Shown one piece after another: positions 5,988 through 57,958 of a DNA stretch of 64,000 bases (position 1 is its first letter; each line of letters begins with the position of its first letter). The notes below the pieces were generated by a model. The model worked only from the letters and a program-made list of their open reading frames with translations. It had not been told where the DNA came from and made no database searches. A program made the position numbers and the translations under genes. Origin of the DNA: Candidatus Methanoperedenaceae archaeon (GTDB lineage Archaea > Halobacteriota > Methanosarcinia > Methanosarcinales > Methanoperedenaceae); NCBI GenBank assembly GCA_963753595.1, contig CAVWCX010000014.1:39196-103195 (forward strand), in the 5' to 3' direction.

Positions 5988-7166
5988 ATGAAAATAAGGG
6001 AAATAAATCGTGTTGATGAATTCAAATCTATTAGAGGAACATGGAATGACCTTCTTGGAAAGAGCCGAGATAGAAACATATTTTTAACATGGGAATGGCT
6101 TTTCAAGTGGTGGGAACACTTTGGTACTAACAAAAAGCTGCAAATATTGATAATTGAAGATCAGGGTGATACAATTGGTATTATGCCAATGCTTTGTTCA
6201 ACTTATCATACTTTCCTATTTAGCTATAATATTGTCGAAAATATTGGAATGAATCTATCTGATTATGGAGGTATTATTTATTCAGATATGGATGATGGTC
6301 AACTCAACAAGATGTTTGACCTGATAAAAGATTACCTTAGCTATAATAAACTTACTCTTCGCTTCGACCAGGTGCCTGATGATTCGAAGTTCCTTAACAT
6401 ATTGCATAAACAATCTTTCCATCAGGATTCATTGTTCATAGGAGAGAAAAAAACAGGTGTCTCCTCATATATACCCATTCAATCGTCATTGGATAATCAC
6501 TTAAATAAATTGAGTAAAAATTTTAGGAAAAATTTGCGCAGAGGAGAGCAAAATATTGAGAAAAAATATGGTAAAATAAAATTTAATAAAATATTAACAC
6601 TAAATTCCTTAGATAATAATTTAAAAGACTTTTGGGATTTGAATCAAAAAAAAATGAATAACCAAAATTTACCATGTTTTAATAAAATCCAAATGGAATT
6701 TTTGACCGAAGTATCAAAAGAATTTGCAAACAACGGATGGTTAAGCCTGTCCTTTCTGGATGTAAATGGACAACATGCATCTGTTGTTTTGGGTTTTGAA
6801 TATGAGGATAGATATTATTTTTATCAGACAGGATCTGACCCAAATTATTCATCATATTCCATTGGTAACATTCATATATTATATATATTAGAAGATTTAA
6901 TTGTAAGAGGTTTAAAAAAATTTGATTTCTTAAGGGGAGGTGAAGGATATAAACTTAGATGGCAGTCGCTGCCAAAAAGCAATAATCGGATAGTTATTAT
7001 GCCAAAAAGTTACATTTCTAAGTTTCAATTCAAGATACTAAATTTGATTTTTCTATATGATGAAATCAAAAAACACAACCTAATAGAAAATTACAAATTA
7101 TTTAATTATAAAATTAAACAAATAAATGAAATCGAAAAAATAAAACTAAAAAATAAGATGCAATAA
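5988..7166 (+). CDS. CelD/BcsL-like GNAT acetyltransferase
   Basis: IFLTWEW, SDYGG, FDFLRGGEGYK motifs. Confidence 0.85.
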   Translation: MKIREINRVDEFKSIRGTWNDLLGKSRDRNIFLTWEWLFKWWEHFGTNKKLQILIIEDQGDTIGIMPMLCSTYHTFLFSYNIVENIGMNLSDYGGIIYSDMDDGQLNKMFDLIKDYLSYNKLTLRFDQVPDDSKFLNILHKQSFHQDSLFIGEKKTGVSSYIPIQSSLDNHLNKLSKNFRKNLRRGEQNIEKKYGKIKFNKILTLNSLDNNLKDFWDLNQKKMNNQNLPCFNKIQMEFLTEVSKEFANNGWLSLSFLDVNGQHASVVLGFEYEDRYYFYQTGSDPNYSSYSIGNIHILYILEDLIVRGLKKFDFLRGGEGYKLRWQSLPKSNNRIVIMPKSYISKFQFKILNLIFLYDEIKKHNLIENYKLFNYKIKQINEIEKIKLKNKMQ

Positions 7167-7198
7167 TATATTCACACATTTGGAACCAAGGTTAAATT

Positions 7199-8470
7199 AT
7201 GCGTTTTCTCTGGAAAATCTACAACGACTCACTCGTTAAAAATTTTCTTTACCTTATGGCGACTAATTTCTTAAATCTTATCCTCGGTTTCTTTTTCTGG
7301 ATTATAGTTGCCAGATACTACACTCCAGATGAAGTTGGAACAACTTCGGCATTATTATCAAGCATGTCCCTGATTTCAATGATAAGTACCTTAGGTTTCC
7401 AGACATCTTTTATATTCTACCTGCCAAGAGACCGGATAAACGCCAGCAGAATTATAAACTCATGCATGACTTCAAGTATCGTTGCTTCGCTTTTTTTTTC
7501 ATTTATTTTTATTTCAGGACTCAACATCTGGGCGCCGCCATTGAAATCTATTCTTGATGATTTAGAATTCGTCATGCTTTTTGTTACAGTTACGACTGTT
7601 ACTACTATATCCGGTCATATCAGCAGCGCTTTCATAGCGGGAAGGAGATCTTCATTTCACATGACAAATCAAATCCTGTTTGGTTTTTTTAAGATTGTCC
7701 CCCTCCAGGTGTTTTCAGTCTTCGGGGCTATGGGCATATTTATGGCGTGGGGTTTAGGAGTAATGATTGCCGTAGCCATTGGATTTTTTTTGTTATCATT
7801 GGTATGGAAAGGTTATTTTCCCACCCTAATGCTTGATCCCATAATTAAAAGGATGGCAGGATATTCGGTAGGGAACTATCTTGCTGAGATTTTTTCTACT
7901 CTTCCGAAACTTGTCCTACCTATAATGATAGTTAATTTGGTTTCTGCAGAATCTACAGGTTTCTTCTATATCGCAATGATGATAGGGGGTCTTCTCTATG
8001 GGATTCCACAATCAATATCAAACTCACTTCTTGCAGAATCCTCAGATGGCGGGGAATTATTGCTCAAAGTGAAAAAATCAATAAAATTAAATGCCGCTAT
8101 TCTTATTCCAGGAGTTCTGTTTTTTTTGTTTTTCGGTAAATTTGTACTTAATCTTTTCAATCCGCTCTATGCCGAGAATGCATCCATTACTCTATTAATA
8201 CTTACAATTGCGAGTTTTCCAGTTTCCATTAATACCCTGTTTACAGCTGTCAGAAACGCTCAAAAAAGAGTTTCCAGCGTTGTAAAGATTAACGCTGCAA
8301 TTGCTGCAATTACTCTTGCTTTCGCCTTGCCTTTTGTAAGAAGTGCAGGTATCGAGGGGGCAGCTTTTGCATTTCTTGCAGCAAATTCTCTTGCTGCGAT
8401 TGTTGTGGCCTATAAGATGAGAAACCTGAACGGATTTGTTTTAGAATCGGCAATATCAAAAATAAAGTGA
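7199..8470 (+). CDS. oligosaccharide flippase (Wzx-like)
   Basis: 423 aa, about 12 TM segments, LGFFFWIIVARYY. Confidence 0.85.
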   Translation: MRFLWKIYNDSLVKNFLYLMATNFLNLILGFFFWIIVARYYTPDEVGTTSALLSSMSLISMISTLGFQTSFIFYLPRDRINASRIINSCMTSSIVASLFFSFIFISGLNIWAPPLKSILDDLEFVMLFVTVTTVTTISGHISSAFIAGRRSSFHMTNQILFGFFKIVPLQVFSVFGAMGIFMAWGLGVMIAVAIGFFLLSLVWKGYFPTLMLDPIIKRMAGYSVGNYLAEIFSTLPKLVLPIMIVNLVSAESTGFFYIAMMIGGLLYGIPQSISNSLLAESSDGGELLLKVKKSIKLNAAILIPGVLFFLFFGKFVLNLFNPLYAENASITLLILTIASFPVSINTLFTAVRNAQKRVSSVVKINAAIAAITLAFALPFVRSAGIEGAAFAFLAANSLAAIVVAYKMRNLNGFVLESAISKIK

Positions 8471-8476
8471 TGAATA

Positions 8477-9001
8477 ATGACCTCTCCTTTAGACCATATC
8501 TTTATCCCGGTTGCCATACTTCTATTATTTTCAAAGAAGCTCAAATTGAATCAAAGAGAAGTAATTGCTCTTAGTTTTTTTGCAGTGCTTCCGGATATAG
8601 ACGGCATTTTTCTTGGCTCAAATAGTATCCCGTTCCACAGGGTACTATTTCATAATATTTTTATAGTAATCATTCCTCTCCTGTTTTTTATGTTTGCAAA
8701 GAGTAACAGGGGAGTGTTCGGCATAATATGCTTCTACCTTATGTCCCATCTAATTCTCGACCTGTTCACTGGAGGTATATTCCTGTTTTATCCATTTTAT
8801 AACAACGTATTTTTTGCCAATGTAGAACTTTTGTTGAACATTGATAGTTTCATACCAGTGCTAGAATATGGCATTAGCAATAAAATTATGAACAATGGAA
8901 TAGGAGAGCCAGTAATCTCAAGTGAGAATGTCGCATTGGCCATATTATTAATTATTTGTGCAGCAATTTCAGCTATTGTCATCCATAGAAAAACAGAGTA
9001 A
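8477..9001 (+). CDS. membrane metal-dependent hydrolase (YdjM-like)
   Basis: LPDID, HRVLFH, SHLILD motifs. Confidence 0.8.
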   Translation: MTSPLDHIFIPVAILLLFSKKLKLNQREVIALSFFAVLPDIDGIFLGSNSIPFHRVLFHNIFIVIIPLLFFMFAKSNRGVFGIICFYLMSHLILDLFTGGIFLFYPFYNNVFFANVELLLNIDSFIPVLEYGISNKIMNNGIGEPVISSENVALAILLIICAAISAIVIHRKTE

Positions 9002-9026
9002 AGTAATACTTATACGAGATTCGATC

Positions 9027-10070
9027 TTAAGAATTTGGTTTTAATTCATTTTTTATCTCTAAACAAATATCCGCAGCTTCCGTATTTACTGGAATTATTT
9101 CAATATCATCTGACTTTGAAACTCCAAGGCCCAGTTCCACTGCTCTCGCTATTTGCTCATCTTCAAAAATACTGCCTATTGAAACTTCGGATGTCGTGCC
9201 ATATATCCGAAGAACTGCTACTCCTACGGCATCAAGTGCAACCCTGTCCCTGCTAGCAATCATTATTCCCGGTTCTATCAATGTCCCCGTAGCAGGGCCC
9301 CCTTTTGAGAATCCCTTGATTCCATCCATAATAATAAATTCAGGTTCATATGCGGTATTGATCTCTGCTATCATCTGCCCCCTGTAGCTTGATGAGTGTA
9401 GCTCATCCATATAATTATACCCGTCCTGGCCTCCTGCTGCCACCATTCCTACGCTATTCTTAAGTGACATTGTGAAGCCACTAAACCCATGTGTTTTAAG
9501 GCAACATGTCTGTACTATTGCATCAGCATCCTCAAAGATCTTTGGAAACAGAAAACCCTTTTTCCAGTGTGCCCTTTCCGGTTGTATCCTTATCCAATCG
9601 CTACTCTTCAGTTCATTAAGAATTACAATATCCACTCCCTTCTTATTAGCAAGCTCTAATACCCCTGTTTCTTTAAGGACTTCTCTTGTATCCCCCGCAC
9701 CACTTCTCTCCGCAAGAACAAGGCTAGCACCTTTTTCTTTGAGCGCATCGACTAATGTCCCGAAAGTATCAATATGTGTTGACGCCGGAAATGGGTCTTG
9801 ACTATTATAGTTTGCTTTAAGTGCGACTCTCTTGCCAGATAAGCTCTTAATATCAAAATATTTCAACAATTCCTTAATTCCATTCTCACGATCATCGGAT
9901 TTTATCACATATACTTGCGACTTCGTGTATTTTTTCAATGGTACCTTCTTCTTTATTGAGATGTTTTTCTCCTCAAAAGTTTCACGCGTATCACTTTTAC
10001 TTAAACAACCCGAAAAAAGTATAGAAAATAATGTAGCTAACCTTCTAAGAAACTCCCTTCTTTTTATCAT
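9027..10070 (-). CDS. DUF362 protein with Tat lipoprotein signal
   Basis: RREFL twin arginine followed by SGC lipobox; LKTH, SLKN, DRVALDA. Confidence 0.85.
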   Translation of the reverse strand: MIKRREFLRRLATLFSILFSGCLSKSDTRETFEEKNISIKKKVPLKKYTKSQVYVIKSDDRENGIKELLKYFDIKSLSGKRVALKANYNSQDPFPASTHIDTFGTLVDALKEKGASLVLAERSGAGDTREVLKETGVLELANKKGVDIVILNELKSSDWIRIQPERAHWKKGFLFPKIFEDADAIVQTCCLKTHGFSGFTMSLKNSVGMVAAGGQDGYNYMDELHSSSYRGQMIAEINTAYEPEFIIMDGIKGFSKGGPATGTLIEPGIMIASRDRVALDAVGVAVLRIYGTTSEVSIGSIFEDEQIARAVELGLGVSKSDDIEIIPVNTEAADICLEIKNELKPNS

Positions 10071-10376
10071 AGACTTTTGTTATATTAAGCTTAATTCACG
10101 ATAACTATTTCTCCTAATCTACTCGGTTCCAATTTTTTGGTTACAGCACTTGTGCAATACCCCAAAATAACGATTGATACTATTTTCTACCTCTCCTGAA
10201 GTCATTACACATTTGTTTTAGTTCGTTATAAAATCAAGGCTTCAAACCGTTTTCCCCATAAACAATAATATAGTTGGGCATATTAATAAATGTTATTAGC
10301 GGTGGTTACCAAGACACCCTTGAAACCATTGGTATTTATTAATTAACAGAAAAAAACAAACTAAGCTACCAGTGTT

Positions 10377-11378
10377 CTACTTTTTCGCAGACTGTAAAGA
10401 TTATAATAAATAGGATATACTATTTTAAATAAATATGATGTAGGAATGATATTGAATATTCTTTTTCATATTGGCATCTAAATTTTCTTTTAATTTGTAA
10501 TGAATATCTTTTGGATAAGGAAGTGTTCTACCAAGACATTTTTGCGATATCCCATTTCAGATGCTCTTTTAATGATATCCTATCGATATATAATGTAGGA
10601 TGATATCGAGTTGGTAAATTTCTATTCAGTGATAGATATCTAAATAGATTTTTTTACTGGACTCATCTAAGAGAGATAAGTGTCCACCAGCAGAGATTTC
10701 GTTTTGGTATAATAAAGTTCGTAACATCTCTTTTGAAGAATATGTATTTAATAATACTTCAATATGAGAAAATGGGTAAGGAATAGCATTTATATATTCA
10801 AGATTTGTCTTATAATATTTATAAAGTATTTTGAGATCATCTATTGAATTGACTTCTTTAACTCTAAATCCATCCTTTTCAAATCTCCTTATATATTTCC
10901 TATCCTGGTTTGATAAGATCTCGTTCCAGATCTTGTCCGGGCAATGCTCATCTAAATTAAGCACCATATTCCCACCTATTGGGTATCGAAGAGAGTTATA
11001 TCCGTTAAAATGCTCTATTGTTAATTCGCTTAAAGTAGTGATCAGTACGAAGAATAACCTATTATTCTTTGCGATTTTTTTTCACCTCCTATGTGAGATA
11101 TGCAACCGAAGAGTCAGATTTATCAGTAATTATTATATGATTATAATCTGAGCGTGGTAGCGGCACAAGACCCCGAATTCCGGATGAATCTGCAATCGTG
11201 CAAATGCTACTGCCAGCATGGCATATACTAAAAAATAGTGGGATATGCAATTGAAGGATTGTTCTAAGGTTCTTTTCCACTCTAGAGTGTGAAAAAAAGT
11301 TCCTTCTTTGCTTTCGTCACATAATCTTTTCCAGTCTATTGAATTATTATTATTCAATTCCTCTATAATATAACCCAT
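10377..11378 (-). pseudogene. fragmented FemAB/GNAT-like acyltransferase
   Basis: fragments GTFFHTLEWK, PLPRSDY, NQDRKYIRRFEK spread over several frames. Confidence 0.6.
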
Positions 11379-12003
11379 AACCTTAGTTGATATTATACTT
11401 TTATTTACTAATAGTCTTCTTCCAGATTGTACCAACATGTAATTAAACGTCGCGATTTGTTCCAACGCTTTATTGCATTAAAACCAGACTAACATTCAAA
11501 CATTACTACAAGAAATAAGAAAAAAGTATTCCCAATACATTTTTACAAAAGGCCAGCAATAGGCAAAAATATATAAAAAAGTTGTATAATATTTAATATT
11601 ACTTTAAAAACAAAAAAAAAGTATATTGAAGAATTAAACATATAACAAAAATATAATAAATCTTTAAAAACTTTAAAAACCGTGTAAAACTATCGATTTA
11701 CTTTTATGTTATAAAATTATGAGGATGAGTCGGCGATTTCAATGAATATATTAAATTACTACATAATAAATAAGTGTGTTTCAACGAAACAATTACTATT
11801 GAAATTAATAATAAATGTGGCATACTAAGAATATCCCAATTTTATCGTGGAATATGTCAGGATGTTACATACAAAAACAATTTAGAGCTGCACGAATTTT
11901 AATTATACTGATTATAATCATGAGCATAAAGTTTAAGTATATGGAGAAATATCATTCAAATATACACATCATTATTGTCATGATAATGATGAACACATAA
12001 ACT

Positions 12004-15000
12004 ATGAACAATCAAACGATGGGAACAAATATGAACAAAAAAAAGAAAGAATTAAAAATAATTAGATATATAAAATCAGGATTTATTATATTTAATGTAC
12101 TAATGGTTTTGATGACAATATCTTCAGCAGCTGCCAGCCAGACGCCTTATAGCGGAACTGCTTTGAAAGTGCCAGGCATTATCCAGGCAGAATATTTTGA
12201 CAAGGGGGGCGAAGGTATTGCATATCATGATTCAGGCACCAAAAATAATGGCGGAGCATACAGAACAGGTGAAGGTATTGATATTGAACAAACTACAGAT
12301 TCTGGTTTAGGTTACGATATCGGCTGGATCAAGGCCGGAGAGTGGATGGAATATACAACAAATATCACTTCCTCAGGCACTTATGATATTGAAGTCAGAG
12401 TAGCAAGGGGTGGAACTGGGGGAAACTTCCATATTTTGTTCAATGGCTTGGACAAAACGGGTACTCTCACTATTCCCGATACTGGCGGATGGCAGAACTG
12501 GACCACTATAAAGAAGACAGGTGTCATCTTGAGTAAAGGAATTCAGATCATGAAAATTGTGTTTGACACTAATTCTCCAACTGGGGAAGATGCTGGAAAT
12601 ATCAATTATTTAAAAATATCTAAGAATAATCCACCATCTATATCGTCTAGCCATTCACCGTCAAACCCGACAACTTTGGACAATGTTATAATAACAGCAT
12701 CAGCAACAGATGACAAAGGTCTTTCTGAGATACAAATATATGTCGACAACAACCTGAAGAATACATGCATTCTATCACTAAGATCAGGATATTGTTCATA
12801 CGCTTTACCATTCACGGAATGTACCTCAATTATTTGCAACCGTGAAAGACACGGCAGGGCAAAGAAGCATTTCCGGGACAAAGCAGTTCGTTGCAAGCAA
12901 CATCCAGACGTCTTTTAGCGGGGTTGCTTTGAAAGTGCCAGGCATTATTCAGGTAGAAGATTATGACATTGGAAGTGAAGGTATTGCATATCATGATTCA
13001 GATACCCAAAATAATGGCGAGTCATACAGGACAGGTGAAGGTGTTGATATTGAACAAACTACAGATTCTGGTTTAGGTTACGATATCGGCTGGATCAAGG
13101 CCGGAGAATGGGTGGAATATACAACAAATATCACTTCCTCAGGCACTTATGATATTGAAGTAAGAGTAGCAAGGGGTGGAACTGGCGGAAACTTCCATAT
13201 TTTGTTCAATGGCTTGGACAAGACGGGTACTCTCACTATTCCCGATACCGGCGGATGGCAGAACTGGACCACAATAAAGAAGACAGGTGTCAGCTTGAGT
13301 GCAGGACCTCAGATCATGAAAATTGTGTTTGACACTAATTCTCCAACTGGGGAAGATGCTGGAAATATCAATTATATAAAAATAGCTCCTACACCAACAA
13401 CCACAGCTCCAGCAAATATTATCACGAATCCAGGATTTGAAATTGGAAGCACAACTCCTGTAAAATGGAGTTATATCACAAATAATGGAAACACACCTGT
13501 ATGGGAAAGTACAACAGCTCATACTGGAACTAAGTCCGTTAAGATATCAGTATCAGGTACGACCGATGTAAATTCAGGAGAACTATGGTATGATAATATT
13601 CCTTCAACAAGCGGAACAACCTACATGTTATCTGCATGGGGCAAATCCCAAGGAATTAGTGGTACTAACAATCCTGGTGTTTGGATGGTTGAGTTCGATA
13701 AAGATAATAAATGGTTACGACAGAAGGTCGATACTTTCCGAAAGGAACTATTGATTGGAATCAACAGCAAACAATTATTACTACAGGTGCTAATACTGCC
13801 TATATCAGCGTTGCTGTCAGTATCTGGAATGGATATGGAACTTTTTACGTAGATGATTTTTCATTGACCATGAAAGATTCACCAAAAGCAACACCGACAG
13901 CAACACCAATACCAATAATACCAATCACAACACCGGCTCCTACGCCTACGCCAACTGCAACACCAGCTCCTACGAGCACGCCTGCTCCTGTTTCAAATGG
14001 CCCTACATATTATGTAGCCACTACTGGTTATGATGGCAATTCCGGCTCATCCTCGTCTCCATGGAGATCTATTCAACACGCAGCAGACATGGTGTCAGCA
14101 GGAGATACTGTTTATGTCATGGGCGGAACATACAATGAGAAGGTTGCTATAACGAAATCGGGAAGTCCAGGAAATTATATCACATTTGCAGCATATCCAG
14201 GACAAAGTGTTTCGATTGATGGAACAGGTATATCATTGGGTTCATGGGATGGACTGATTCGTATAAATGGCGCAAGCTATATAAAAATATCAGGATTCAG
14301 GGTGCTAAAATCCTCATTCGTAGGGATCATGGTATCAGGTGGAAATCCCTCAAATATTATTATCCAAGATAATTATATTAATGGCGCATATTCTTCTGGA
14401 ATTTATGCAGAAAGAGCATCAAGCATTACTATAGACCATAATGAGATTACTGGATCACATATTGCAGAAGCAGGATATCATAACGAGATCATGAGTTTAG
14501 TTATAGTTAATGGGTTTGAAATAATGAATAATTATGTTCATGATAATATCAATACTGAGAGCATTACTGTAAAAATGGATTCGAGTAACGGGCGCATTCA
14601 TCATAATAACATAAAGCCAACTTCAAGCGCAGGTATTTATGTATGTGCTTGGGCAGACATGCAACAGAATATCGAGGTATATGATAATATAGTTCATGAT
14701 GGGCCTGGAAGTTCTCGAGGAATAGCTGTTGCTGTTGAAGGAGGCGGCACTATTAAAAACGTCAAGATATATAACAATCTAGTATATAGAAACAGCGCAA
14801 GTGGTATAGTCGTAGATTATTATTCTGACTGTGGCAGTGACCCTGGTACTCTCTGCCTCAGCGGAACTATAGATAACATATTGATAGAAGGAAACACTGT
14901 ATACCAAAACAACGCAATAGGATGGGAAGGCGGTATTGTAAATAAATATAGTAAAGCTACTAATGTAGTTATAAGTAATAACATAATCAGCCAGAACTAC

Positions 15001-36466: not shown

Positions 36467-36828
36467 GGTTTTTTCGCCTCAAGGACTTTTTCAATATCTT
36501 TCATAATTACAAGAGGATTTATGGGTTTTTCAAAATATCCATCGCATCCGGCACTTATTACTTTTTCGCGGTCTCCTGCCATTGCGTATGAAGTAATTGC
36601 TATTATCGGGGTCTTCTGTCCGGATTCGCGGATCCTCTTTGTGGCCTCAAGCCCATCGATATCGGGAAGCTGTATATCCATCAGAATAAGTTCCGGGTGC
36701 AAATTATTTGCTTTTTCCACACCCTCAAGACCGCAAAAAGCCTCAATAACATCATGACCATACTTTTTCAAGACAAAGGTTAATAACTTCATGTTCTGTG
36801 GATTGTCTTCAATTACCAGTATCTTCAA
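36463..36828 (-). CDS. stand-alone receiver protein (DivK/CheY-like)
   Basis: IEDN, MDIQLP, ITSYAM, KP. Confidence 0.92.
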   Translation of the reverse strand: MKILVIEDNPQNMKLLTFVLKKYGHDVIEAFCGLEGVEKANNLHPELILMDIQLPDIDGLEATKRIRESGQKTPIIAITSYAMAGDREKVISAGCDGYFEKPINPLVIMKDIEKVLEAKKP

Positions 36829-39800
36829 ATTCTAACCTCCCGTGGTATGCGCAGGGAAAATATACTACCCTTATGGTACTCACTTTCCACACTTATCGTA
36901 CCTCCAAGCACTTCCCGGGTGAGCTTCATGGTAAGATATAAACCAAGTCCGGTTCCGGATGTTTTGGCCGTGAGTGATGACTCAAGCCTTGTAAATGCGG
37001 TAAAGAGTTTTGGAATATCTTCTTTCTTTATCCCGATCCCTGGATCTTTAATAGATATTTCTATTTCTTTATTAATAGACTTTGCTATTATTTTGATCTC
37101 ACCTTTTTCTGTGAATTTCACTGCATTTGAAAAAAGATTAATTAAGCACTGAAGCAGGCGCCTGCGGTCAGTGTTCAACTCCACATCTATAAAATCAATA
37201 TTCACCGAAAGCCCCTTTCCATTGAGCTCTTGTTTCAAAGTAGAAACTACTTCATCAATTACTCCTTTCAAATTGAACCTGGAAACATTGACCTCAAGTT
37301 TTCCTGCTTCTATCTTTGAAATATCGATAACATCGTTTATCAATGACAAAAGATGCTTTCCTGATGTGTTGACTATCTGGACCTGTTCTCTTTGCTCAGG
37401 TGTGAGTTCTCCCGACCAGCCTTCAAGAAGAATGCTGGTGAAACCGATTATGGAATTAAGGGGCGTCCTGAGTTCATGACTTGTACTGGCTATGAACATG
37501 GATTTCATGCGATCAAGTTCAATAAGTCGCTTGTTCGCTTTTTCAAGTTCATCAGCCGTATTATTCATATCCTCCATTAGATTAAGGAGACCTGACTGGC
37601 TCTCTTTTAGAGCAATTGTCCTTTCTTCCACTTTTGTTTCAAGTGTTTTTGCATATTCTTTTGTTTCTTCGTAAAGCTGAACGTTCTGGATTGAAAGCGC
37701 AACCTGCGAGGAAATAAGTTCAATGATCTTCAATTTTTTCTTGTCAGGTTTCTTATCCGTGCGGGTGAATATACATAGTACTCCCAGGCACTTTCCTCCT
37801 GTGATAAGGGGGAATGCTGCATGATACCGTATGTCCTCTTTGCGTGTAGCTTCCCTTGTGGCAAATTTGATCACAGCTTCGCGGTCAGGAAGGATAAGGG
37901 GCCGAAGGTCGCGAGCTGCTGCCCCGCACAGGCAATCACCTATTTTGACCTTATTTGTGGTAAGGTCAGCAATAGTCTCTTCTGATGTGGCCCTGTGTGC
38001 AGCTAACTGTAAATGATCATCCGGTTTTACAAGGCAAATAGTTCCTCCTTCAAGCCCCATTATCTTGATGCACTCGTCAAGGACAGTTTCAAATATCTGA
38101 TTTATATCAAGCAACCCGGTCGCGGTTGAGATTATTTTATTGATGATCCTGAGTTCCTCATTTGCTAATTGCATTTCATCTTTGGCAAGTTTTAGCTCTG
38201 TAATATCATTAAACGTAGTATAAACCTGATATGGTTTTATTTCTGCATACCTGGTTTGAGGTATTGCATTTATTTGTATCCATCGGTATTCTTTAACTTC
38301 AGGATTGAATACACCCATGACAACATCTTTTACTTCCTTCCGGGTCTGAAGTGTCACCATTGCCGGATGTTTCTGCGCCGGGAAGTCAGAACCATCCTCA
38401 TGGATCGCTTTCCACATCGGATCAATGGATGTCCGTCCTATCAAGTGGCCCGGTGATAAACCAAGTATCTTTTGCGCTGCGGGGTTTGCCGAAATTATTT
38501 TTCCGGATTCATCGTGATATATTACTCCCTGCGCCATTGTTTCATATAGTGTTCGATATTTCTCTTCTGAAAAGCTTAGTGCTTTTTCAACGCGCTTTCT
38601 CTCGGTGATATCAACGACAAATGCAAGGAAAAGCCTGCGTTGTGCCTGCTCTATCAATTGCAGATGGACCTCAACTGGATAAAGACTACCGTTTGCCCTT
38701 CTATTATCAGTGTAGAATAAGAGTTTCTTTTTTTCATGCCGGATAAGTGGCTTAATAAGTTTAAGGAATGATTCTTTATCATATTCGGATTTGATGTCAG
38801 GAGCTGTCATCGATCGCAGTTCTTCCAGAGTAAACCCAAGGTTCTTGCATGCCCCTGAATTCGCATAAGTGAACCTGAGGGTTTCAGGATCAAACATATA
38901 AATTTCATTAAGGCTTTTTTCAAGAATGGAAGAGAGGCTCATCTTTTCTTCTTCCCCTTTCCTTATATCTTCCACCAGGCGTGCATTTTCAAGCGCGATC
39001 GCTGCACTTGAAGCAAGCCCCTGCAGCATCTCGATATCCAGTTCATCGAACGGGCGGTGTTCTTTTGTGTTATGGATCTGGAATGAGCCCAACATCTCAC
39101 CTTTCCTGTCCAGAATAGGAACATTGGCAAGATTATTAAAACCAAGCGTTTTCCGGATATCCTGGATCACATAAGGGTCATTTTGGGCATCATTGGATAT
39201 ATAAGGTGATTTAGTCTCCATGACATGCCCGGGAACACCGTAACCCTTCTTGAAAACATAATCTATGGGAAAAAGCTTGCCATGCTCATTATATTCCGAA
39301 AACGTTATTTTTTCGTTAACGATCAAACCTGCAGTTCCGGCTGTCGAATCTGTAATTTCCATTGCCGAAACTATAAGATTTTGCAGGATGACAGGAATTT
39401 CAAGAACGGTATTTATCGTCTGTGCCGCCTTTGACAGGATGCGAAGCTGGTTATTCCGCCGGGATGCGAATTCTTCAGCACGCTTGCTTTGGGTGATGTC
39501 GCGTGCTGTGGCATAGGTAATTCCTTCATCTTTATTATAGTTTGCACGCCATGAAAGCCACAGCAATCTGCCATCTTTGCAAATATAACGATTTTCAAAG
39601 TTAAGCGAAGAACCTGTCTTGATTTGCCTTGCAATTTCATCAAGAGTAGACTGTTTGTCATCCGGATGGACGAAATCCACGAACGGTTTTGACAGGAGTT
39701 CTGTTTCTGAATATCCAAGAAGATCTGAGGAGGCCGGATTCACTTTCTTGAAAGCGCCATTTGGATCGGCGATTACCATCATATCCGAAGATATCTGGAA

Positions 39801-41828
39801 GAATTTGAAAAATTGTTCCCGTTCCAGTTCTGCCTTCTTGCGCTCGGTGATGTCCAGTACATGCACAAGATAACCAGATATGGATTTATTTTCGTTCCAT
39901 ATTGGTAATATACGGAGGTCAAGATAACATTGGCCCGATCTTGTTGTTTTGTATAAATTTAATTTCTTGACAAGATCAAAATTGAAAGTTAATTCAAATT
40001 CAATCGTTTCCCGATTTGAAAGCCTGTTTTTTGCATCCACTGGAAGATTTGGATCATCAAAAAGATTGAAATTCTTCACTTCTTCAATATTTTCAATACC
40101 AAAAAGGTCAAGACATTTCCTGTTAGCATCAATTAAATGACCGGTCTGATCATATATTTCAATTGCGACCGGGGATTGCTCAAAGATCCCCCTGAACCTC
40201 TCTTCACTTTCTTTTAGCGTTTCTTTTGCTTTCTTTTGCTCGGTGATATCCCTGACGATACATATATGCCCATTGTAATTTCCGTTCTCATCCCAGAGAG
40301 CCGTAGCTATGACATCCGTAGGGACTATACTGCCATCTTTCATGAGGCCTGGGACTTCTCCTTTGAAAAGCCCCGTATCCTTATTATGCAACGTTACATC
40401 CAGGCCCTTTTCGACTCCGGGTATCATCTCAGATGGAGTAATTTTCCGCCAGGTCTTACTGATCAAATCTTCCTGGGAATAACCGAATATTTTTGCATAT
40501 GCTGCATTTACGTAGATATACCGGTCTTTTTCATTGCATATGGTAACGCCATCAGTACTACTGGCTATTGCTTTAAGAAGGCGGTTCTTTTCATCATCAG
40601 CACGCTTGCGCTCGGTGATATCGGTGTGAACACCTACGATAACGCGGCCATATTGAGGGTGGTCAAATAAAGAAACGTTAGCATAAGACCAGAAAAGAGT
40701 TCCATCTTTCTTAATATTATTGACCTCTCCGTGCCATTCTCCGGTTTTTCTGAGGAGACCCAAAATCTCTTCTTTTGTTTCCTGCGGCGTCTTATCTGTT
40801 GGGGCATTTAATATGCTGACATCCTTTCCTATCATTTCACCTGGCTCGTAACCAAACATTTGTTCAAATTTGGAATTAGTATGTTTGATCAAACCATCTT
40901 CCATTCCCAAAAGATAGATCCCCTCTGAGACATTCTTAAAAATTTCACTGTTAAGGCGCGCTTCTTCTTCCGCATGTTTGCGTTGTGTGATGTCCCGGAT
41001 ATTTGTAAGAAATCCTTCGATTTTTCCATCTTTTTTCAGGATTGTTGTACTTGTTTCTACTAAAATCAATTCTCCGCTTTTTGATCTCAGGCTTAACTCC
41101 AATTTATTAAGGAGACTGCCTGCATTAGGATTGATCCTCCCTTCTAAAACGGCATTTTTGAACTGTTTAACGATACCTGGAAGCTCTTTGATCTCCAAAA
41201 TTCCGAGCTTGAAAAAATATTTCCCAATTACTTCTTCGGGCGTGAAACCCAGAGTTTCTTTAATTTTATTGTTGATTGTCAATATTTTTCCAAAACTATC
41301 CACTTGTAGAATTATATCATTTGAATACTCGAAAAGCCTGCGATATTTTCTCTCGCTTTCCTGAAGCTCCTCAGTTCTCTCAATTACACGCACCTCCAGA
41401 TCATCATGTGCCTTCAAAAGTGCCTCTTGTGCTACTTTGCGCTCGGTATCATCCCGCCAGATACTGATTATAAGACCTTCTTCTTCAATATCGATCTTAT
41501 CAAGAAGGGAGGAGTTGACCGAAAAGTATCTCATCCCTTCTGTGGTCTTCATAGCAAAATCAACATTTATTGCCATGCCATTTTGGCTGGTCTGGCCTTC
41601 GAGTCTTAGCCATGTATCCCTGGCATTGGGGTCCATCTTTCCAAGCCATATGAAAAGGTTCGTTTCGATAACATCATGGATCTTACTGGAGAAGAATTTA
41701 CAGAATTTTTCATTGACAAAAATGATGTTCTTAGCCGAATCTGTGATCACTATGCCATCAGCCGATGCACGCAGAAGTTTCTCGAAAAATTTAACGGTCT
41801 GCTGTAAATTCTGTGCTTTTTCCATCAT
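36825..41828 (-). CDS. cytoplasmic multi-PAS, 2x GAF histidine kinase
   Basis: 1667 aa; repeated DITE/QRK; ALENARL and SIQNVQL GAF ends; SHELRTPL; GTGLGL; no TM segments. Confidence 0.93.
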   Translation of the reverse strand: MMEKAQNLQQTVKFFEKLLRASADGIVITDSAKNIIFVNEKFCKFFSSKIHDVIETNLFIWLGKMDPNARDTWLRLEGQTSQNGMAINVDFAMKTTEGMRYFSVNSSLLDKIDIEEEGLIISIWRDDTERKVAQEALLKAHDDLEVRVIERTEELQESERKYRRLFEYSNDIILQVDSFGKILTINNKIKETLGFTPEEVIGKYFFKLGILEIKELPGIVKQFKNAVLEGRINPNAGSLLNKLELSLRSKSGELILVETSTTILKKDGKIEGFLTNIRDITQRKHAEEEARLNSEIFKNVSEGIYLLGMEDGLIKHTNSKFEQMFGYEPGEMIGKDVSILNAPTDKTPQETKEEILGLLRKTGEWHGEVNNIKKDGTLFWSYANVSLFDHPQYGRVIVGVHTDITERKRADDEKNRLLKAIASSTDGVTICNEKDRYIYVNAAYAKIFGYSQEDLISKTWRKITPSEMIPGVEKGLDVTLHNKDTGLFKGEVPGLMKDGSIVPTDVIATALWDENGNYNGHICIVRDITEQKKAKETLKESEERFRGIFEQSPVAIEIYDQTGHLIDANRKCLDLFGIENIEEVKNFNLFDDPNLPVDAKNRLSNRETIEFELTFNFDLVKKLNLYKTTRSGQCYLDLRILPIWNENKSISGYLVHVLDITERKKAELEREQFFKFFQISSDMMVIADPNGAFKKVNPASSDLLGYSETELLSKPFVDFVHPDDKQSTLDEIARQIKTGSSLNFENRYICKDGRLLWLSWRANYNKDEGITYATARDITQSKRAEEFASRRNNQLRILSKAAQTINTVLEIPVILQNLIVSAMEITDSTAGTAGLIVNEKITFSEYNEHGKLFPIDYVFKKGYGVPGHVMETKSPYISNDAQNDPYVIQDIRKTLGFNNLANVPILDRKGEMLGSFQIHNTKEHRPFDELDIEMLQGLASSAAIALENARLVEDIRKGEEEKMSLSSILEKSLNEIYMFDPETLRFTYANSGACKNLGFTLEELRSMTAPDIKSEYDKESFLKLIKPLIRHEKKKLLFYTDNRRANGSLYPVEVHLQLIEQAQRRLFLAFVVDITERKRVEKALSFSEEKYRTLYETMAQGVIYHDESGKIISANPAAQKILGLSPGHLIGRTSIDPMWKAIHEDGSDFPAQKHPAMVTLQTRKEVKDVVMGVFNPEVKEYRWIQINAIPQTRYAEIKPYQVYTTFNDITELKLAKDEMQLANEELRIINKIISTATGLLDINQIFETVLDECIKIMGLEGGTICLVKPDDHLQLAAHRATSEETIADLTTNKVKIGDCLCGAAARDLRPLILPDREAVIKFATREATRKEDIRYHAAFPLITGGKCLGVLCIFTRTDKKPDKKKLKIIELISSQVALSIQNVQLYEETKEYAKTLETKVEERTIALKESQSGLLNLMEDMNNTADELEKANKRLIELDRMKSMFIASTSHELRTPLNSIIGFTSILLEGWSGELTPEQREQVQIVNTSGKHLLSLINDVIDISKIEAGKLEVNVSRFNLKGVIDEVVSTLKQELNGKGLSVNIDFIDVELNTDRRRLLQCLINLFSNAVKFTEKGEIKIIAKSINKEIEISIKDPGIGIKKEDIPKLFTAFTRLESSLTAKTSGTGLGLYLTMKLTREVLGGTISVESEYHKGSIFSLRIPREVRI

Positions 41829-43963
41829 TTTAATTCATCCTTTTGCGCAGAAACCGGCTTTATTTCCACAGCACTGAATTTATACTCAGGTTGCTTTGAG
41901 TGGATATCATAAACAGGATTTGTAACAAGATTTGCAGCCATATCATCACTTGAGCAAAGCGCTTTACCAAAATGGAAGGGCATGAAAACCGTACCTTTCT
42001 GGACACTGTCAGTTATCCGGGCATTCCCTCTTGCAGTACCCCTTCGTGATGTGACCTCGACCAGATCTCCCTCGTTTATGCCAATCATTTGTGCATCATG
42101 CGGGTGAATATTTACGATATTATCAGGTGCTGCATTATTTAGATACGGGACTCTCCCGGTACGTGTACGGGTATTGAAATGCCCTTCCAGTCGTCCGGTT
42201 ATGAGTATGAATGGATAATCCTTGTCCGGATTTTCAGCCGGCCCGACATAATCACGGAAAAGCAATGCAGCCCTGCCATCAGGCCTGGGAAAATGCATAT
42301 CTGTGAAAAGGCGCATCGTACCCGGATGGTTTTCTTCAGGACAGGGAAGCTGAAGACCCACAACTCCACGAAGCCGTTCATAGGTCACACCATTCATATC
42401 ACATATGCGTCCGCGGGTCAGGCCTTTCCATTCTTCGAACACCTCCTGCGGCGATGTATATGGAAATTCTTTTTCAAAACCCATAGCCCTGGCTATGAGC
42501 CATATTATTTCATAATCAGGTTTTGCAACACCTGGAGGTTCAACTATTTTTTCGACCAGTTCTATTCGCCGTTCAGAAGAAATGAATGTCCCCGTCTTTT
42601 CACACCACTGGGCTGCCGGAAGTATTACATTTCCCAGCAGAGTTGTCTCCGTGGGATGGAATATATCCTGTACCACAAGCAGTTCAGCCTTTGCCAGTCC
42701 TTCTTCTACCCACCTGGTATTCGGAAGTGAAGCTGCAGGATTAGTTGTTGTGATCCACAGGGCGCGAATATCGCCGCTATGGAGACCTTCGATGATCTCC
42801 ATGATTGAACGCCCCGGAGTGGATTTGATATTAGTCTGCGGAACACCCCAATACTTTGCCACTTCTTTTCGATGCTGCTCGTTAGTAATTTGCCGCATCC
42901 CCACAAGTAAATGTGAGAGTGCGCCAACCCAGCGGTTTCCCATTGCATTTGCCTCGCCTGTGATCGACAGCGGTCCTGCTCCGGGTTTACATAGATTTCC
43001 CGTGAGAATGGAGAGGTTTTGCAGGGTATTGTTTTTAAAGACAGCCTGTGTCGAATGGTTGTATCCCTGGAACCAGAATGTGAGCATCGCTTTTGAATTG
43101 CCTATCATTCGCGCCGCTTCAATGATCTGTTTTTCCGGTAATCCGGTTATTACGGCCGCTTTTTCGGGTGAATATCCTTCCACCAGTTTTTTTAGGTCAG
43201 ATAGGCCGCTTGCATATTTTTCAACATTTTCCTCATCAACAAATCCCTCTTTAAGAAGTACGTAAGCCAGGGAATTATTCAGGGCAACATCAGTGCCTGG
43301 CCTGATCCGCAGGTGCAGGTCCGCCAGTCCTGATGTTTTTGTTCTCCGGGGATCAACGACGATCACCTTTGTTCCATTTTTCTTCTTTGCCATACTTAAG
43401 CGGTGAAACATTACTGGTGTTGATATTGCCATGTTGCTTCCGGCTATGAAGAAAAGGTCTGCTTCTTCTATGTCTGCATAACAGGTCAAAGGGGCGTCTG
43501 CGCCAATTGTTGATAAAAACCCGGCTGCCGTACTTGCCATACAAAGCCTGGTACTGCATTCGATATTATTAGTGCCTATCAAGCCCCTCATTAATTTGTT
43601 CATGAGATAGTATTCTTCTGTCAGGTTAGCTGCGCCACCATAAAAGGCAACTGAATCCGGCCCATATTTTTTGATAATTCGGTTAAATTCGTTAGCTGTA
43701 TGACTGATTGCTTCGTCCCAGCTAACAGGAACAAAATCATCTCCCCGGTGTATCATGGGTTGAGTCAGCCGTCCATGGGCAGTGAACATGGGCGGGATGT
43801 TGGCAGCCAATGTGCATATATGTCCATCATTAACCGGATGCCCTTTCATGCCCTTGATCTCAATGACCTTTCCATTTACGACGCCAACCATAAGCCCGCA
43901 GCCAAATCCACAGTAGGGACATGTTGATTTGCTCCATTTTATATTCAATAGGCTGCCATTCAT
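41825..43963 (-). CDS. molybdopterin oxidoreductase, NasA/NarB nitrate-reductase-like, divergent
   Basis: TCPYCGFGC..C 4Fe-4S motif, RLCMAS Mo ligand, SKQPEYK; ATG at 43963 after ggtggag; no Tat signal. Confidence 0.88.
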   Translation of the reverse strand: MNGSLLNIKWSKSTCPYCGFGCGLMVGVVNGKVIEIKGMKGHPVNDGHICTLAANIPPMFTAHGRLTQPMIHRGDDFVPVSWDEAISHTANEFNRIIKKYGPDSVAFYGGAANLTEEYYLMNKLMRGLIGTNNIECSTRLCMASTAAGFLSTIGADAPLTCYADIEEADLFFIAGSNMAISTPVMFHRLSMAKKKNGTKVIVVDPRRTKTSGLADLHLRIRPGTDVALNNSLAYVLLKEGFVDEENVEKYASGLSDLKKLVEGYSPEKAAVITGLPEKQIIEAARMIGNSKAMLTFWFQGYNHSTQAVFKNNTLQNLSILTGNLCKPGAGPLSITGEANAMGNRWVGALSHLLVGMRQITNEQHRKEVAKYWGVPQTNIKSTPGRSIMEIIEGLHSGDIRALWITTTNPAASLPNTRWVEEGLAKAELLVVQDIFHPTETTLLGNVILPAAQWCEKTGTFISSERRIELVEKIVEPPGVAKPDYEIIWLIARAMGFEKEFPYTSPQEVFEEWKGLTRGRICDMNGVTYERLRGVVGLQLPCPEENHPGTMRLFTDMHFPRPDGRAALLFRDYVGPAENPDKDYPFILITGRLEGHFNTRTRTGRVPYLNNAAPDNIVNIHPHDAQMIGINEGDLVEVTSRRGTARGNARITDSVQKGTVFMPFHFGKALCSSDDMAANLVTNPVYDIHSKQPEYKFSAVEIKPVSAQKDELK

Positions 43964-44222
43964 GAATCTTTCTCCACCAACCCCTGCACCTGCAAAGGTC
44001 ACGTTTTTTGTGACGTTTTTTGCAATACTTATGATTATGTAATATCCCTTATATTAAAATGATGTTTTTTTCTGTGGTAATGTTTGGAAATAATCTTTTG
44101 AAATACAGGGGAAATTATCACACAAAAAAATCCAAAATACACACAAAATCATTCCGACGGATAACCTTAAATATTACATAACACAATATGATTTATATGA
44201 TTATGATGATTGAATAATCGGT

Positions 44223-44292
44223 GTCCGAGCCCGACCTCCTAACGGGTGCTCCTCTGTTCGCTATATGGGGGTGTGAATCCCCCCTCGGACCA
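44223..44292 (+). ncRNA. candidate tRNA-like small RNA
   Basis: GTCCGAG/CTCGGAC 7-bp stem, GGGGG-TGTGAAT-CCCCC T-arm, CCCG/CGGG hairpin; upstream TTTATAT and downstream T-rich tract. Confidence 0.5.
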
Positions 44293-44358
44293 ACTTTCTT
44301 CTATTTAAATTCCACGCGAACTCAAAATATTTATGTAATCCCGCTATTGAACGAAAAA

Positions 44359-44712
44359 ATGGAAAAAACCAGGTTTGTATATATTTTGATCGGGGGTTTT
44401 TTTGGTTCGGCATTAAGAGAGTTTCTTTCGTTATTGATTCCCGGTGTTTTCGGCATTTTATTTGTAAATATAATCGGATGTTTTGTCCTGGGCTACCTTA
44501 TGTACGCAACTGAACTTGGTTTTTTCAGTGAAAAAGACCGATATCTCATAGGTATCGGTTTTTGCGGCGGCCTGACAACATTTTCAACGTTCATAGTTCA
44601 GACCATGCAATTTCCAGTCTCGATTGCCTTATTGAATGTTACAGCTAACATTGGTTTTTGTCTCGTTGGCGTTTTCCTTGGAAGAATATTTGCAAAGGGG
44701 CTAAGAGCATGA
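44359..44712 (+). CDS. crcB: fluoride channel Fluc/CrcB
   Basis: GGFFGSALR, VNIIG, GFCGGLTTFSTF. Confidence 0.92.
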   Translation: MEKTRFVYILIGGFFGSALREFLSLLIPGVFGILFVNIIGCFVLGYLMYATELGFFSEKDRYLIGIGFCGGLTTFSTFIVQTMQFPVSIALLNVTANIGFCLVGVFLGRIFAKGLRA

Positions 44713-45056
44713 ACTTGATTCCTATACTATTAGCAGGCTTCGGGGGAGCGCTTGGCGCATTGCTGCGCTATCTTGTATCAGGGATCTATCCTGTGTGGAG
44801 GGATATTCCAACCGGGACGCTGCTTGTGAATTTTCTTGGTTCGACGGCACTTTCTGTGATCACATTTGGCACAAATCCCCTTCCTTACTTTGCAGATGCG
44901 GGACTTCTCGGTGGATTTACAACATTCTCCACTTTCAGTTACGAAAGTTTCCAGCTTCTTGAACGCAGGGAGTTTAGAATTTTTGCAGCTAATGTTTTTT
45001 TGAGCCTGCTTCTTTGCGCGGGAGGTGTTGTTTTAGGAAAATGGATCGTATCATAA
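44709..45056 (+). CDS. crcB: fluoride channel Fluc/CrcB, second subunit
   Basis: GGALGALLRY, GTLLVN, GGFTTFSTF; ATGA overlap with the first copy. Confidence 0.92.
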   Translation: MNLIPILLAGFGGALGALLRYLVSGIYPVWRDIPTGTLLVNFLGSTALSVITFGTNPLPYFADAGLLGGFTTFSTFSYESFQLLERREFRIFAANVFLSLLLCAGGVVLGKWIVS

Positions 45057-45110
45057 CCAGGTACAGTTTGATAATCCAGTTTTGAACAATAAAGTAATAT
45101 CATCACAATA

Positions 45111-57738: not shown

Positions 57739-57794
57739 TTCACCGAAGCTTTTAAGTCTCATTCCATCCTTACGAGCGAAAGCTTTTCCTTAAA

Positions 57795-57868
57795 GCCTCG
57801 GTGGCTCAGCTTGGCAGAGCGAGAGATTTGTAATCTCTAGGTCGAGGGTTCAAATCCCTCCCGGGGCT
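57795..57868 (+). tRNA. tRNA-Thr (anticodon UGU), no intron, CCA not encoded
   Basis: GCCTCGG/CCGGGGC acceptor stem; AGAGA-TTTGTAA-TCTCT anticodon arm; GAGGG-TTCAAAT-CCCTC T-arm. Confidence 0.96.
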
Positions 57869-57958
57869 TAAAACTTCAAGTTCAATTCTCTCTTTTTTAG
57901 GATTACTTTCACCTTGCTCTCACAGGGCTTAAGAGAATAGAAAGGAGTGTAAGTAAGA

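Follow-up and report, generated by a model that had tools for sequence, protein, structure and literature searches.

Among described regulators, the closest to the RNA treated here are sRNA154 and sRNA41 of Methanosarcina mazei, small RNAs (sRNAs) that are reported to mask ribosome binding sites (RBSs) with loop sequences (PMC5867862). The element that we analyzed lies at positions 44223-44292 on the + strand of a 64,000-nucleotide (nt) stretch of DNA from a Candidatus Methanoperedenaceae archaeon (hereafter, the window). It resembles these two sRNAs in being an intergenic, lineage-restricted archaeal sRNA from the same order with exposed anti-RBS loops, and it has in common with them that the loops are complementary to the RBSs of central-metabolism messenger RNAs (mRNAs) (PMC5867862). 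It differs in that it has no sequence or covariance-model similarity to either, is built on a scaffold like that of transfer RNA (tRNA), and has a second pairing site inside the coding region; moreover, its predicted target is mcrB, whereas the targets of sRNA154 and sRNA41 are nitrogen or acetyl-CoA decarbonylase/synthase genes. Based on comparisons among related genomes, we lean towards the interpretation that the element is a ~70-nt trans-acting sRNA in which a tRNA-like scaffold would clamp the mcrB translation start and so repress or tune methyl-coenzyme M reductase (Mcr).

The suggested mode of binding is reminiscent of that of OxyS on fhlA in Escherichia coli, where one mRNA is contacted at two short sites, one at the Shine-Dalgarno (SD) sequence and one in the coding region, in a stable looped complex that blocks initiation. 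However, OxyS is bacterial and Hfq-dependent and both of its contacts are hairpin loops, whereas the contacts here would be made by one hairpin loop and one long single strand in a three-way junction, and no chaperone is known. In shape, the element is like tRNA (RF00005) and tRNA-like RNAs such as mascRNA in stacking a 7-base-pair (bp) acceptor stem on an arm of 5 bp that ends in a 7-nt loop; unlike tRNA, it lacks TTC in that loop, an anticodon arm and the U8/N9 linker, and its discriminator-like base varies. Finally, engineered 'tRNA scaffold' RNAs similarly hold a functional segment in place of the tRNA arms, the acceptor/T module being able to confer folding, processing and stability; the arrangement found here is natural and conserved in the family, and its scaffold may likewise have a stabilizing effect.

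Structure and distribution of the tRNA-like element

The original prediction, made from the letters of the window, had described a tRNA-like fold exposing an anti-SD loop. Direct inspection of the sequence recovered all of its fold elements in place:

44223-44292, + strand: whole small-RNA core, 70 nt (covariance model R1, 82.1 bits, E 5e-19)
44223-44229, + strand: 5' strand of the acceptor-like stem, GTCCGAG, forming 7 bp with CTCGGAC at 44284-44290 (pairing at 7/7 positions in 33/33 distinct sequences)
44230-44246, + strand: hairpin H1, made of CCCG (44230-44233), the loop (44234-44242) and CGGG (44243-44246)
44247-44266, + strand: central single strand UGCUCCUCUGUUCGCUAUAU, 20 nt, pyrimidine-rich, starting at its 5' end with TGCTCCTCT; antisense to mcrB codons 7-13
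44267-44283, + strand: T-like arm, made of GGGGG (44267-44271), TGTGAAT (44272-44278) and CCCCC (44279-44283)
44284-44292, + strand: 3' strand of the acceptor-like stem, then two bases left unpaired (CA in the window, AA in most homologues)

The H1 loop, ACCTCCTAA (also written ACCUCCUAA), is identical to the 3' end of the 16S rRNA of the same genome plus two flanking bases (GGATCACCTCCTAAAG). On its own, the window sequence folds no better than chance (minimum free energy -24.8 kcal/mol, z = -0.64, with 51/200 shuffles folding equally well) and, therefore, the structural case rests on comparison.

When the 33 distinct homologous sequences were parsed in the correct register, 527 of the 528 stem cells paired, and compensatory changes were present in all three helices, at four pairs. 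These are acceptor pair 2, which changes once from U-A to C-G; the closing pair of H1, which is G-C in 26 sequences, A-U in 6 and G-U in 1; and, in the T arm, pair 1, which is G-C, A-U or U-A, and pair 4, which changes from G-C to A-U. In addition, acceptor pair 6 changes once from A-U to G-U, and T-arm pair 3 has one G-U. G-U wobbles at four pairs are compatible with the + strand only. An automated count gave 98.3% of cells paired with 4 pairs changed on both sides, a result that 0/500 shuffles reached, and RNAalifold independently recovered the acceptor stem and the T arm. The covarying homologues that the original prediction had asked for thus exist. A pairing of ACCUCCU with the G run of the T stem was considered as an alternative fold and found no support: in G006 (G000 denotes the genome under study, other G numbers the genomes of relatives, and L numbers loci) the T arm compensates, while the alternative would be broken.

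The exposed anti-SD loop also stood up to comparison, in that ACCTCCT is kept in 33/33 distinct sequences despite a loop length of 7-11 nt; one of these sequences has CCTCCTA as its loop and takes the A of ACCTCCT from the closing stem base. In the T-like loop, U occupies position 1 in 31 of the 33, and A is invariant at positions 5 and 6. The tRNA-like minihelix (7+5 bp with the 3' strands adjoining without a spacer) is present in 33/33 distinct sequences, with a 7-nt loop on the 5-bp stem followed by an unpaired 3' base, and the sequence of this acceptor/T module is invariant beyond what pairing requires. Such a 12-bp acceptor/T module is what RNase P, tRNase Z and the CCA-adding enzyme recognize. 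As to the proposed GACCA end, the bases are present in the window and are not kept among homologues: because the two bases 3' of the stem vary (AA in 26, CA in 5, TA in 1 and AG in 1 of the distinct sequences), CCA is not encoded.

The element is tRNA-shaped yet is no tRNA. In the window, ARAGORN found a sole tRNA, tRNA-Thr at 57794-57869, and none at the element; Rfam 15 gave no match at gathering thresholds and none at E ≤ 10 over 44100-44420. Both searches bear out the earlier statement that this is no canonical tRNA, pylT or fluoride riboswitch, and a match to a known family, which would have counted against the prediction, did not appear in the Rfam run. Where a tRNA has an anticodon arm (a 5-bp stem and a 7-nt loop with U33) and a canonical D arm, the central 18-21 nt hold no conserved stem; a weak internal stem can be drawn in this segment, but a G-to-A change leaves an uncompensated A-C. 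H1 directly abuts the acceptor stem without the 2-nt (U8/N9) linker, the T-loop motif TTCRA is missing (the loops read TGAAAAT, TGTGAAT, TGAGAAT and the like, and TTC occurs in none), and the discriminator-like base is A, C or U. The features of archaeal C/D box sRNAs, in which a C box (RUGAUGA) close to the 5' end and a D box (CUGA) close to the 3' end flank the guide sequences, are likewise missing, with no CUGA after the core and AUGAUGA-like repeats lying outside it, upstream, and no snoRNA-type Rfam match rose above noise.

The cross-matches of R1 that were examined are tRNAs, save one within a coding region, and score 15 bits for the tRNA-Thr of the window, 15-24 bits for tRNA-Thr genes and 35 bits for a phage tRNA-Leu. 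The last belongs to viral locus L213, a phage contig on which 18 tRNA genes are arrayed at 7099-12657; the acceptor (GTCCGAG/CTCGGAC) and T-stem (GGGGG/CCCCC) strings of the tRNA-Leu(UAA) gene among them are those of the element, presumably by coincidence, and the viral-contig match is this gene and unrelated to the element. A comparison of the acceptor and T strings with 44 ARAGORN genes gave no clear parent, the T arm coming closest to Arg-CCT and the acceptor to Asp or Ser. Descent from tRNA-Thr was rejected. Replacement of a missing tRNA was rejected as well, the tRNA set of the genome (44 genes, intron mode) having no gap. We note that tRNA-Lys(UUU), on the - strand of contig C35 in G000 (reverse-complement offset ~28,889), has an intron after the anticodon loop; this gene was found by pattern and is missed by ARAGORN in default mode.

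BLASTN against 41 relatives detected the ~72-nt core at E ≤ 1e-12 in 20/24 genomes of the same genus and in 0/16 genomes of other families. Between species the ~70-nt core is 80-90% identical, and its flanks are unalignable. Using the covariance model R1, which was built for this study and served for scans of the family, order and class, we found the element in 43/53 genomes of the family and in 32/34 high-quality ones, at one copy per carrier genome except for two in G008. Outside the family, the order scan (151 genomes) gave only three weak matches (E 0.016-0.09), all of them tRNA-Thr, and the class scan (151 genomes) gave two weak matches, one within a coding region and the other in G180; in the sister family f4, R1 had no match in 48 genomes of the order set and 67 of the class set. 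Among metagenomic contigs, 34 of 64 chosen by a pattern for the 3' half carry the element.

Two variants stand apart. The second copy in G008 (L060, contig C13, 7170-7238) has a diverged T arm, AGGGG/CCUCU, in which pairing is kept, and it retains the same upstream AACCTTAAATA and ATGATGATGA blocks. The metagenomic variant L215 (2459-2519, - strand) lacks ~13 nt of the central antisense strand, has the loop GTCCTCCT and may be a decaying or retargeted copy.

Predicted pairing with the mcrB translation start

A search of the genome under study with the complement of the central strand led to codons 7-13 of mcrB (contigs C8, 1952-1972, and C34). mcrB is the first gene of the mcrBDGA operon for Mcr, and its start codon is GUG. 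The same mRNA has an unusually long SD, UUAGGAGGU, which is the 9-nt complement of the H1 loop, while the second pairing site extends from +19 to +39. In the genome under study, the duplex of the central strand with mcrB comprises 10+9 bp with one bulged U and has a free energy (dG) of -31.4 kcal/mol, making mcrB the best non-self duplex genome-wide on both strands (-31.4 at C8 and C34 versus -27.8 kcal/mol for the next site). This genome-wide duplex scan covered G000, and for the pairing tests the mcrB 5' regions were taken from the other genomes of the family.

All 40 of the 40 sRNA-mcrB pairs (38 genomes have both, with two sRNA copies in G008) keep a duplex of 12-19 bp. The dG of the central strand with its own mcrB ranges from -23.5 to -34.0 kcal/mol with a mean of -29.3 kcal/mol, and for the same 40 pairs the H1 loop forms 7-10 bp with the SD at a mean dG of -13.3 kcal/mol. 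Of shuffled central strands, 0/7800 reach the observed energy, the best shuffle having -24.4 kcal/mol. Over core positions 2-15 of the 25 distinct central strands, 27 substitutions are wobble-compatible (26 from C to U facing G and 1 from A to G facing U) and 2 are disruptive, and the five U positions that face A have one change in 125 cells. In G071, the mRNA has GCU-CAA for GCA-AAA and the sRNA has GAGC for UUGC, restoring two pairs. The paired mRNA sequence, CUAUAUAGCGACAGAGGAGC (20 nt), is the longest invariant run within the first 87 nt of mcrB, synonymous sites included, in 46 genomes. Complementarity to the SD and to the early coding region of the target is, thus, conserved. The RBS masking that the original prediction had suggested in general terms gains in this way a concrete, conserved, predicted target, the translation initiation region of mcrB; its reading of the second strand (TGCTCCTCT) as a generic anti-SD is less apt than one in which this strand is antisense specifically to mcrB codons 7-13, over 12-19 bp.

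Several points weigh against this assignment. The genomes compared are related and, hence, are not independent observations. The mcrB duplex is ahead of the next genomic site by just 3.6 kcal/mol. Positions at the edge of the duplex mismatch often, and because seven sRNAs of the UAGC type face GCAA, the compensation in G071 is a single case. Both pairings run in the same 5'-to-3' order on sRNA and mRNA and, therefore, cannot form one continuous duplex; a looped complex of the kissing type is needed. A site in a KaiC-like gene pairs nearly as well in some genomes (-30.4 kcal/mol in G093). Three fairly complete genomes (G063, G104 and G135) have no detectable copy of the element, an absence that is uninformative given that a search with window positions 43600-45100 left the flanks unmatched as well. 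The mcrB site is identical in 12/14 genomes of families f2 and f5, with one synonymous change in the other 2, and neither R1 nor a wobble-tolerant antisense pattern found a counterpart RNA in sister families. Because the site is frozen in families in which the RNA was not detected, the constancy of the mRNA must stem from something else, and the sRNA may do no more than fit an mRNA sequence that was already frozen.

Concerning this constraint, the mcrB start (C8, 1917-1972, and C34; L070-L117 and L164-L177) has the SD AGGAGGU, the GUG and codons 6-13 invariant across three families, at synonymous sites as well; structure in the mRNA, GAGGAG as an internal SD-like motif or pairing with another partner could be responsible. 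The extra matches of the antisense pattern, in genus g10 and several genomes of the family, were discarded as the antisense strand of KaiC-like genes or other coding DNA. The KaiC-like ATPase gene (GIYIATEE; C30, 43951-43975, L118) has 18 nt identical to the mcrB site in another frame. We rejected it as a second target because the site is not conserved and shows synonymous drift, with a mean dG of -22.5 versus -29.1 kcal/mol for mcrB in 22 genomes. We also observed that the mcrB 5' region is present twice in G000 (C8 and C34, 170 nt identical), which could reflect two mcr operons or an assembly duplication, and that G116, G001, G005, G016, G020 and G008 have a second mcrB copy with a different sequence upstream of ~-22.

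Proposed mechanism and competing explanations

As a working model, the scaffold would consist of the 7-bp acceptor-like stem stacked coaxially on the 5-bp T-like arm, with the positions of the D arm and the anticodon arm occupied by two antisense modules. Module 1, the H1 loop ACCUCCUA(A), identical to the 16S 3' end, would pair with the mcrB SD UUAGGAGGU, and module 2, the 20-nt single strand, with mcrB codons 7-13 (+19 to +39). With both sites bound, the GUG start would be looped out and sequestered between the two helices and the 30S subunit excluded, so that repression or tuning of Mcr synthesis is the most likely outcome. The tRNA-like module, for its part, may provide folding, end-processing and stability. 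In this model, transcription, the generation of ends by tRNA-processing enzymes, binding in vivo and the sign of the effect are the steps that we infer.

Mcr, which catalyzes the methane-forming and methane-activating step, ranks with the most abundant proteins in these archaea, and the host family probably comprises nitrate- or metal-dependent methane oxidizers. Within its limits, our literature search found no natural riboregulator of mcr, turning up a preprint on engineered silencing and otherwise unrelated work. As judged from sequence, the element would stand out among base-pairing sRNAs by a scaffold without precedent and by a predicted target of central importance to the biology. We put forward tentatively, as something short of probable, the broader proposal that a natural tRNA-scaffolded antisense RNA clamps the SD and codons 7-13 of mcrB and sets the Mcr level after transcription. 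If true, the key enzyme of methane metabolism would have its first dedicated riboregulator, and archaea their first base-pairing sRNA in the shape of a tRNA. The predicted pairing, if it holds, would provide a point at which post-transcriptional control of methane oxidation can be tested directly in organisms without a pure culture, as well as a marker RNA whose ratio to mcr mRNA is readable in metatranscriptomes, and it would mean that the tRNA fold has been co-opted in evolution to carry antisense modules. Should the predicted target prove wrong, the element still constitutes a well-supported new family of structured RNAs that has no entry in Rfam 15 and is confined to a single archaeal family.

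We considered that binding at the same two mcrB sites might protect or activate the message rather than repress it, e.g. by shielding it from RNases or by opening a weak fold that occludes the SD. This possibility rests on the same evidence of complementarity, and it accords with the predicted fold of the mcrB leader, in which part of the SD region pairs with GACCU in codons 6-7, and with the need of methane-oxidizing archaea for high Mcr levels. M. mazei sRNA154 is, moreover, described as stabilizing target mRNAs via its loops (PMC5867862). However, activation is difficult to square with an H1 loop that itself occupies the SD with 7-10 bp, and the leader fold is no better than shuffles (z = -1.47, with 18/200 shuffles as good), and we regard protection or activation as unlikely, albeit worth keeping in mind. 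If the element were instead a general mimic of the 16S 3' end, acting as an SD sponge or as a decoy for a protein or nuclease that binds the anti-SD tail, the mcrB match would be a by-product, both sequences being related to SD or anti-SD. Such a role would fit the identity of ACCUCCUA(A) with the 16S 3' end and flank, its constancy in a loop whose size varies, and a third CCUCC (CCTCC in the DNA) in the 3' trailer, ≤15 nt downstream, in 8/42 loci; also, with 230 occurrences of AGGAGGT on the two strands of the genome together, the loop by itself lacks specificity. The central strand, however, pairs far past the SD-like core, over 12-19 bp including GUCGCUAUAU, and its G and A positions are constant, with changes only where wobble is allowed, whereas a generic pyrimidine tract needs neither. 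We find general mimicry slightly harder to credit than a protective role.

A tRNA-derived RNA with a non-regulatory job (the substrate or cofactor of an enzyme, a primer or a charged carrier), for which the mcrB match is a relic of its origin, would account for an acceptor/T module that is invariant beyond the need for pairing, for the near-universal, single-copy and housekeeping-like occurrence, and for the cross-matches of R1 to tRNA-Thr and the phage tRNA-Leu. Against this, a discriminator-like base that may be A, C or U does not favor an aminoacylation identity, the anticodon arm is missing, the tRNA set has no gap to fill, and a relic would not keep 27 wobble-compatible versus 2 disruptive changes; we consider this improbable. 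Lastly, its position suggests that the element could be what is left of a decayed tRNA or of an integration site, or that it acts in cis on crcB as a leader or riboswitch, as it lies 66 nt ahead of the real start of crcB at 44359 and a 163-codon open reading frame (ORF; 44221-44712), an artefactual extension of crcB that runs through the element, joins both. The fluoride riboswitch (crcB motif) likewise sits upstream of crcB. But the element, unlike that riboswitch, has no Rfam match at E ≤ 10 and has its own T-run terminator region, and crcB is found ≤1.5 kb downstream in just 2/41 other loci (3/42 counting the window) with variable neighbors, which undercuts the crcB-leader alternative named in the original prediction. 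Compensatory conservation in 43/53 genomes while the flanks diverge is also at odds with a remnant. We take both the remnant and the crcB leader to be effectively excluded.

Genomic context and putative transcription signals

Two flanking features may belong to the transcription unit of the sRNA:

44163-44222, + strand: promoter-like block with AACCTTAAATA (44163-44173), TTTATAT (44192-44198) and ATGAT/ATCAT repeats (~44186-44212)
44293-44313, + strand: pyrimidine/T-rich trailer, likely an archaeal oligo-T termination region

TTTATAT was correctly placed by the original prediction, being 25 nt ahead of G44223, and TATA-like boxes, judged by eye, precede the homologues as well. The ATGAT/ATCAT motif occurs 2.57 times per 60 nt upstream in 42 loci compared with 0.27 in shuffles and 0.14 farther upstream, and in all clades the repeats lie between the TATA-like box and the sRNA. 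Downstream, 41/42 loci have at least 3 consecutive T within 21 nt, and 30/42 have at least 4 at 2-13 nt; in the window itself, the T-rich tract noted earlier amounts to no more than TTT runs. With a transcription start that would lie somewhere between ~-26 and +1, there may be a short leader for RNase P to remove.

The neighbors differ by clade, with sucD upstream and an aldehyde dehydrogenase gene downstream in one arrangement, trpS downstream in another, and a gene of the TrmB family on the other strand in a third. Based on the variable neighbors, the AT-rich upstream block and the T runs, the element looks like a stand-alone gene with its own transcription unit. The linkage to trpS was dismissed as incidental, since the downstream gene of that clade is an ordinary TrpRS gene located elsewhere in G000.

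The highly conserved mcr promoter region, ~-245 to -215 from mcrB (L070-L099), has a similar TATTATCATGAACGAT box directly after a TATA-like ATTTATTTTATAATG. In some clades (e.g. L046) the boxes of the sRNA and mcr promoters agree over ~15 nt, and the similar boxes may be an operator common to both. An ATCATGA-type box in both promoters could tie the enzyme and its would-be RNA governor into a single regulatory loop.

Within the window, the element is followed at 44359-45056 by tandem crcB paralogues, one at 44359-44712 and an overlapping ORF ending at 45056. On its other side, a formate-dehydrogenase-like molybdopterin oxidoreductase (PF00384, PF01568 and PF04879) is encoded at 41825-44002 on the - strand, pointing away from the element, and beyond it a 1667-residue ORF at 36825-41828, also on the - strand, has a C-terminal part that, as read from the translation, is histidine-kinase-like.

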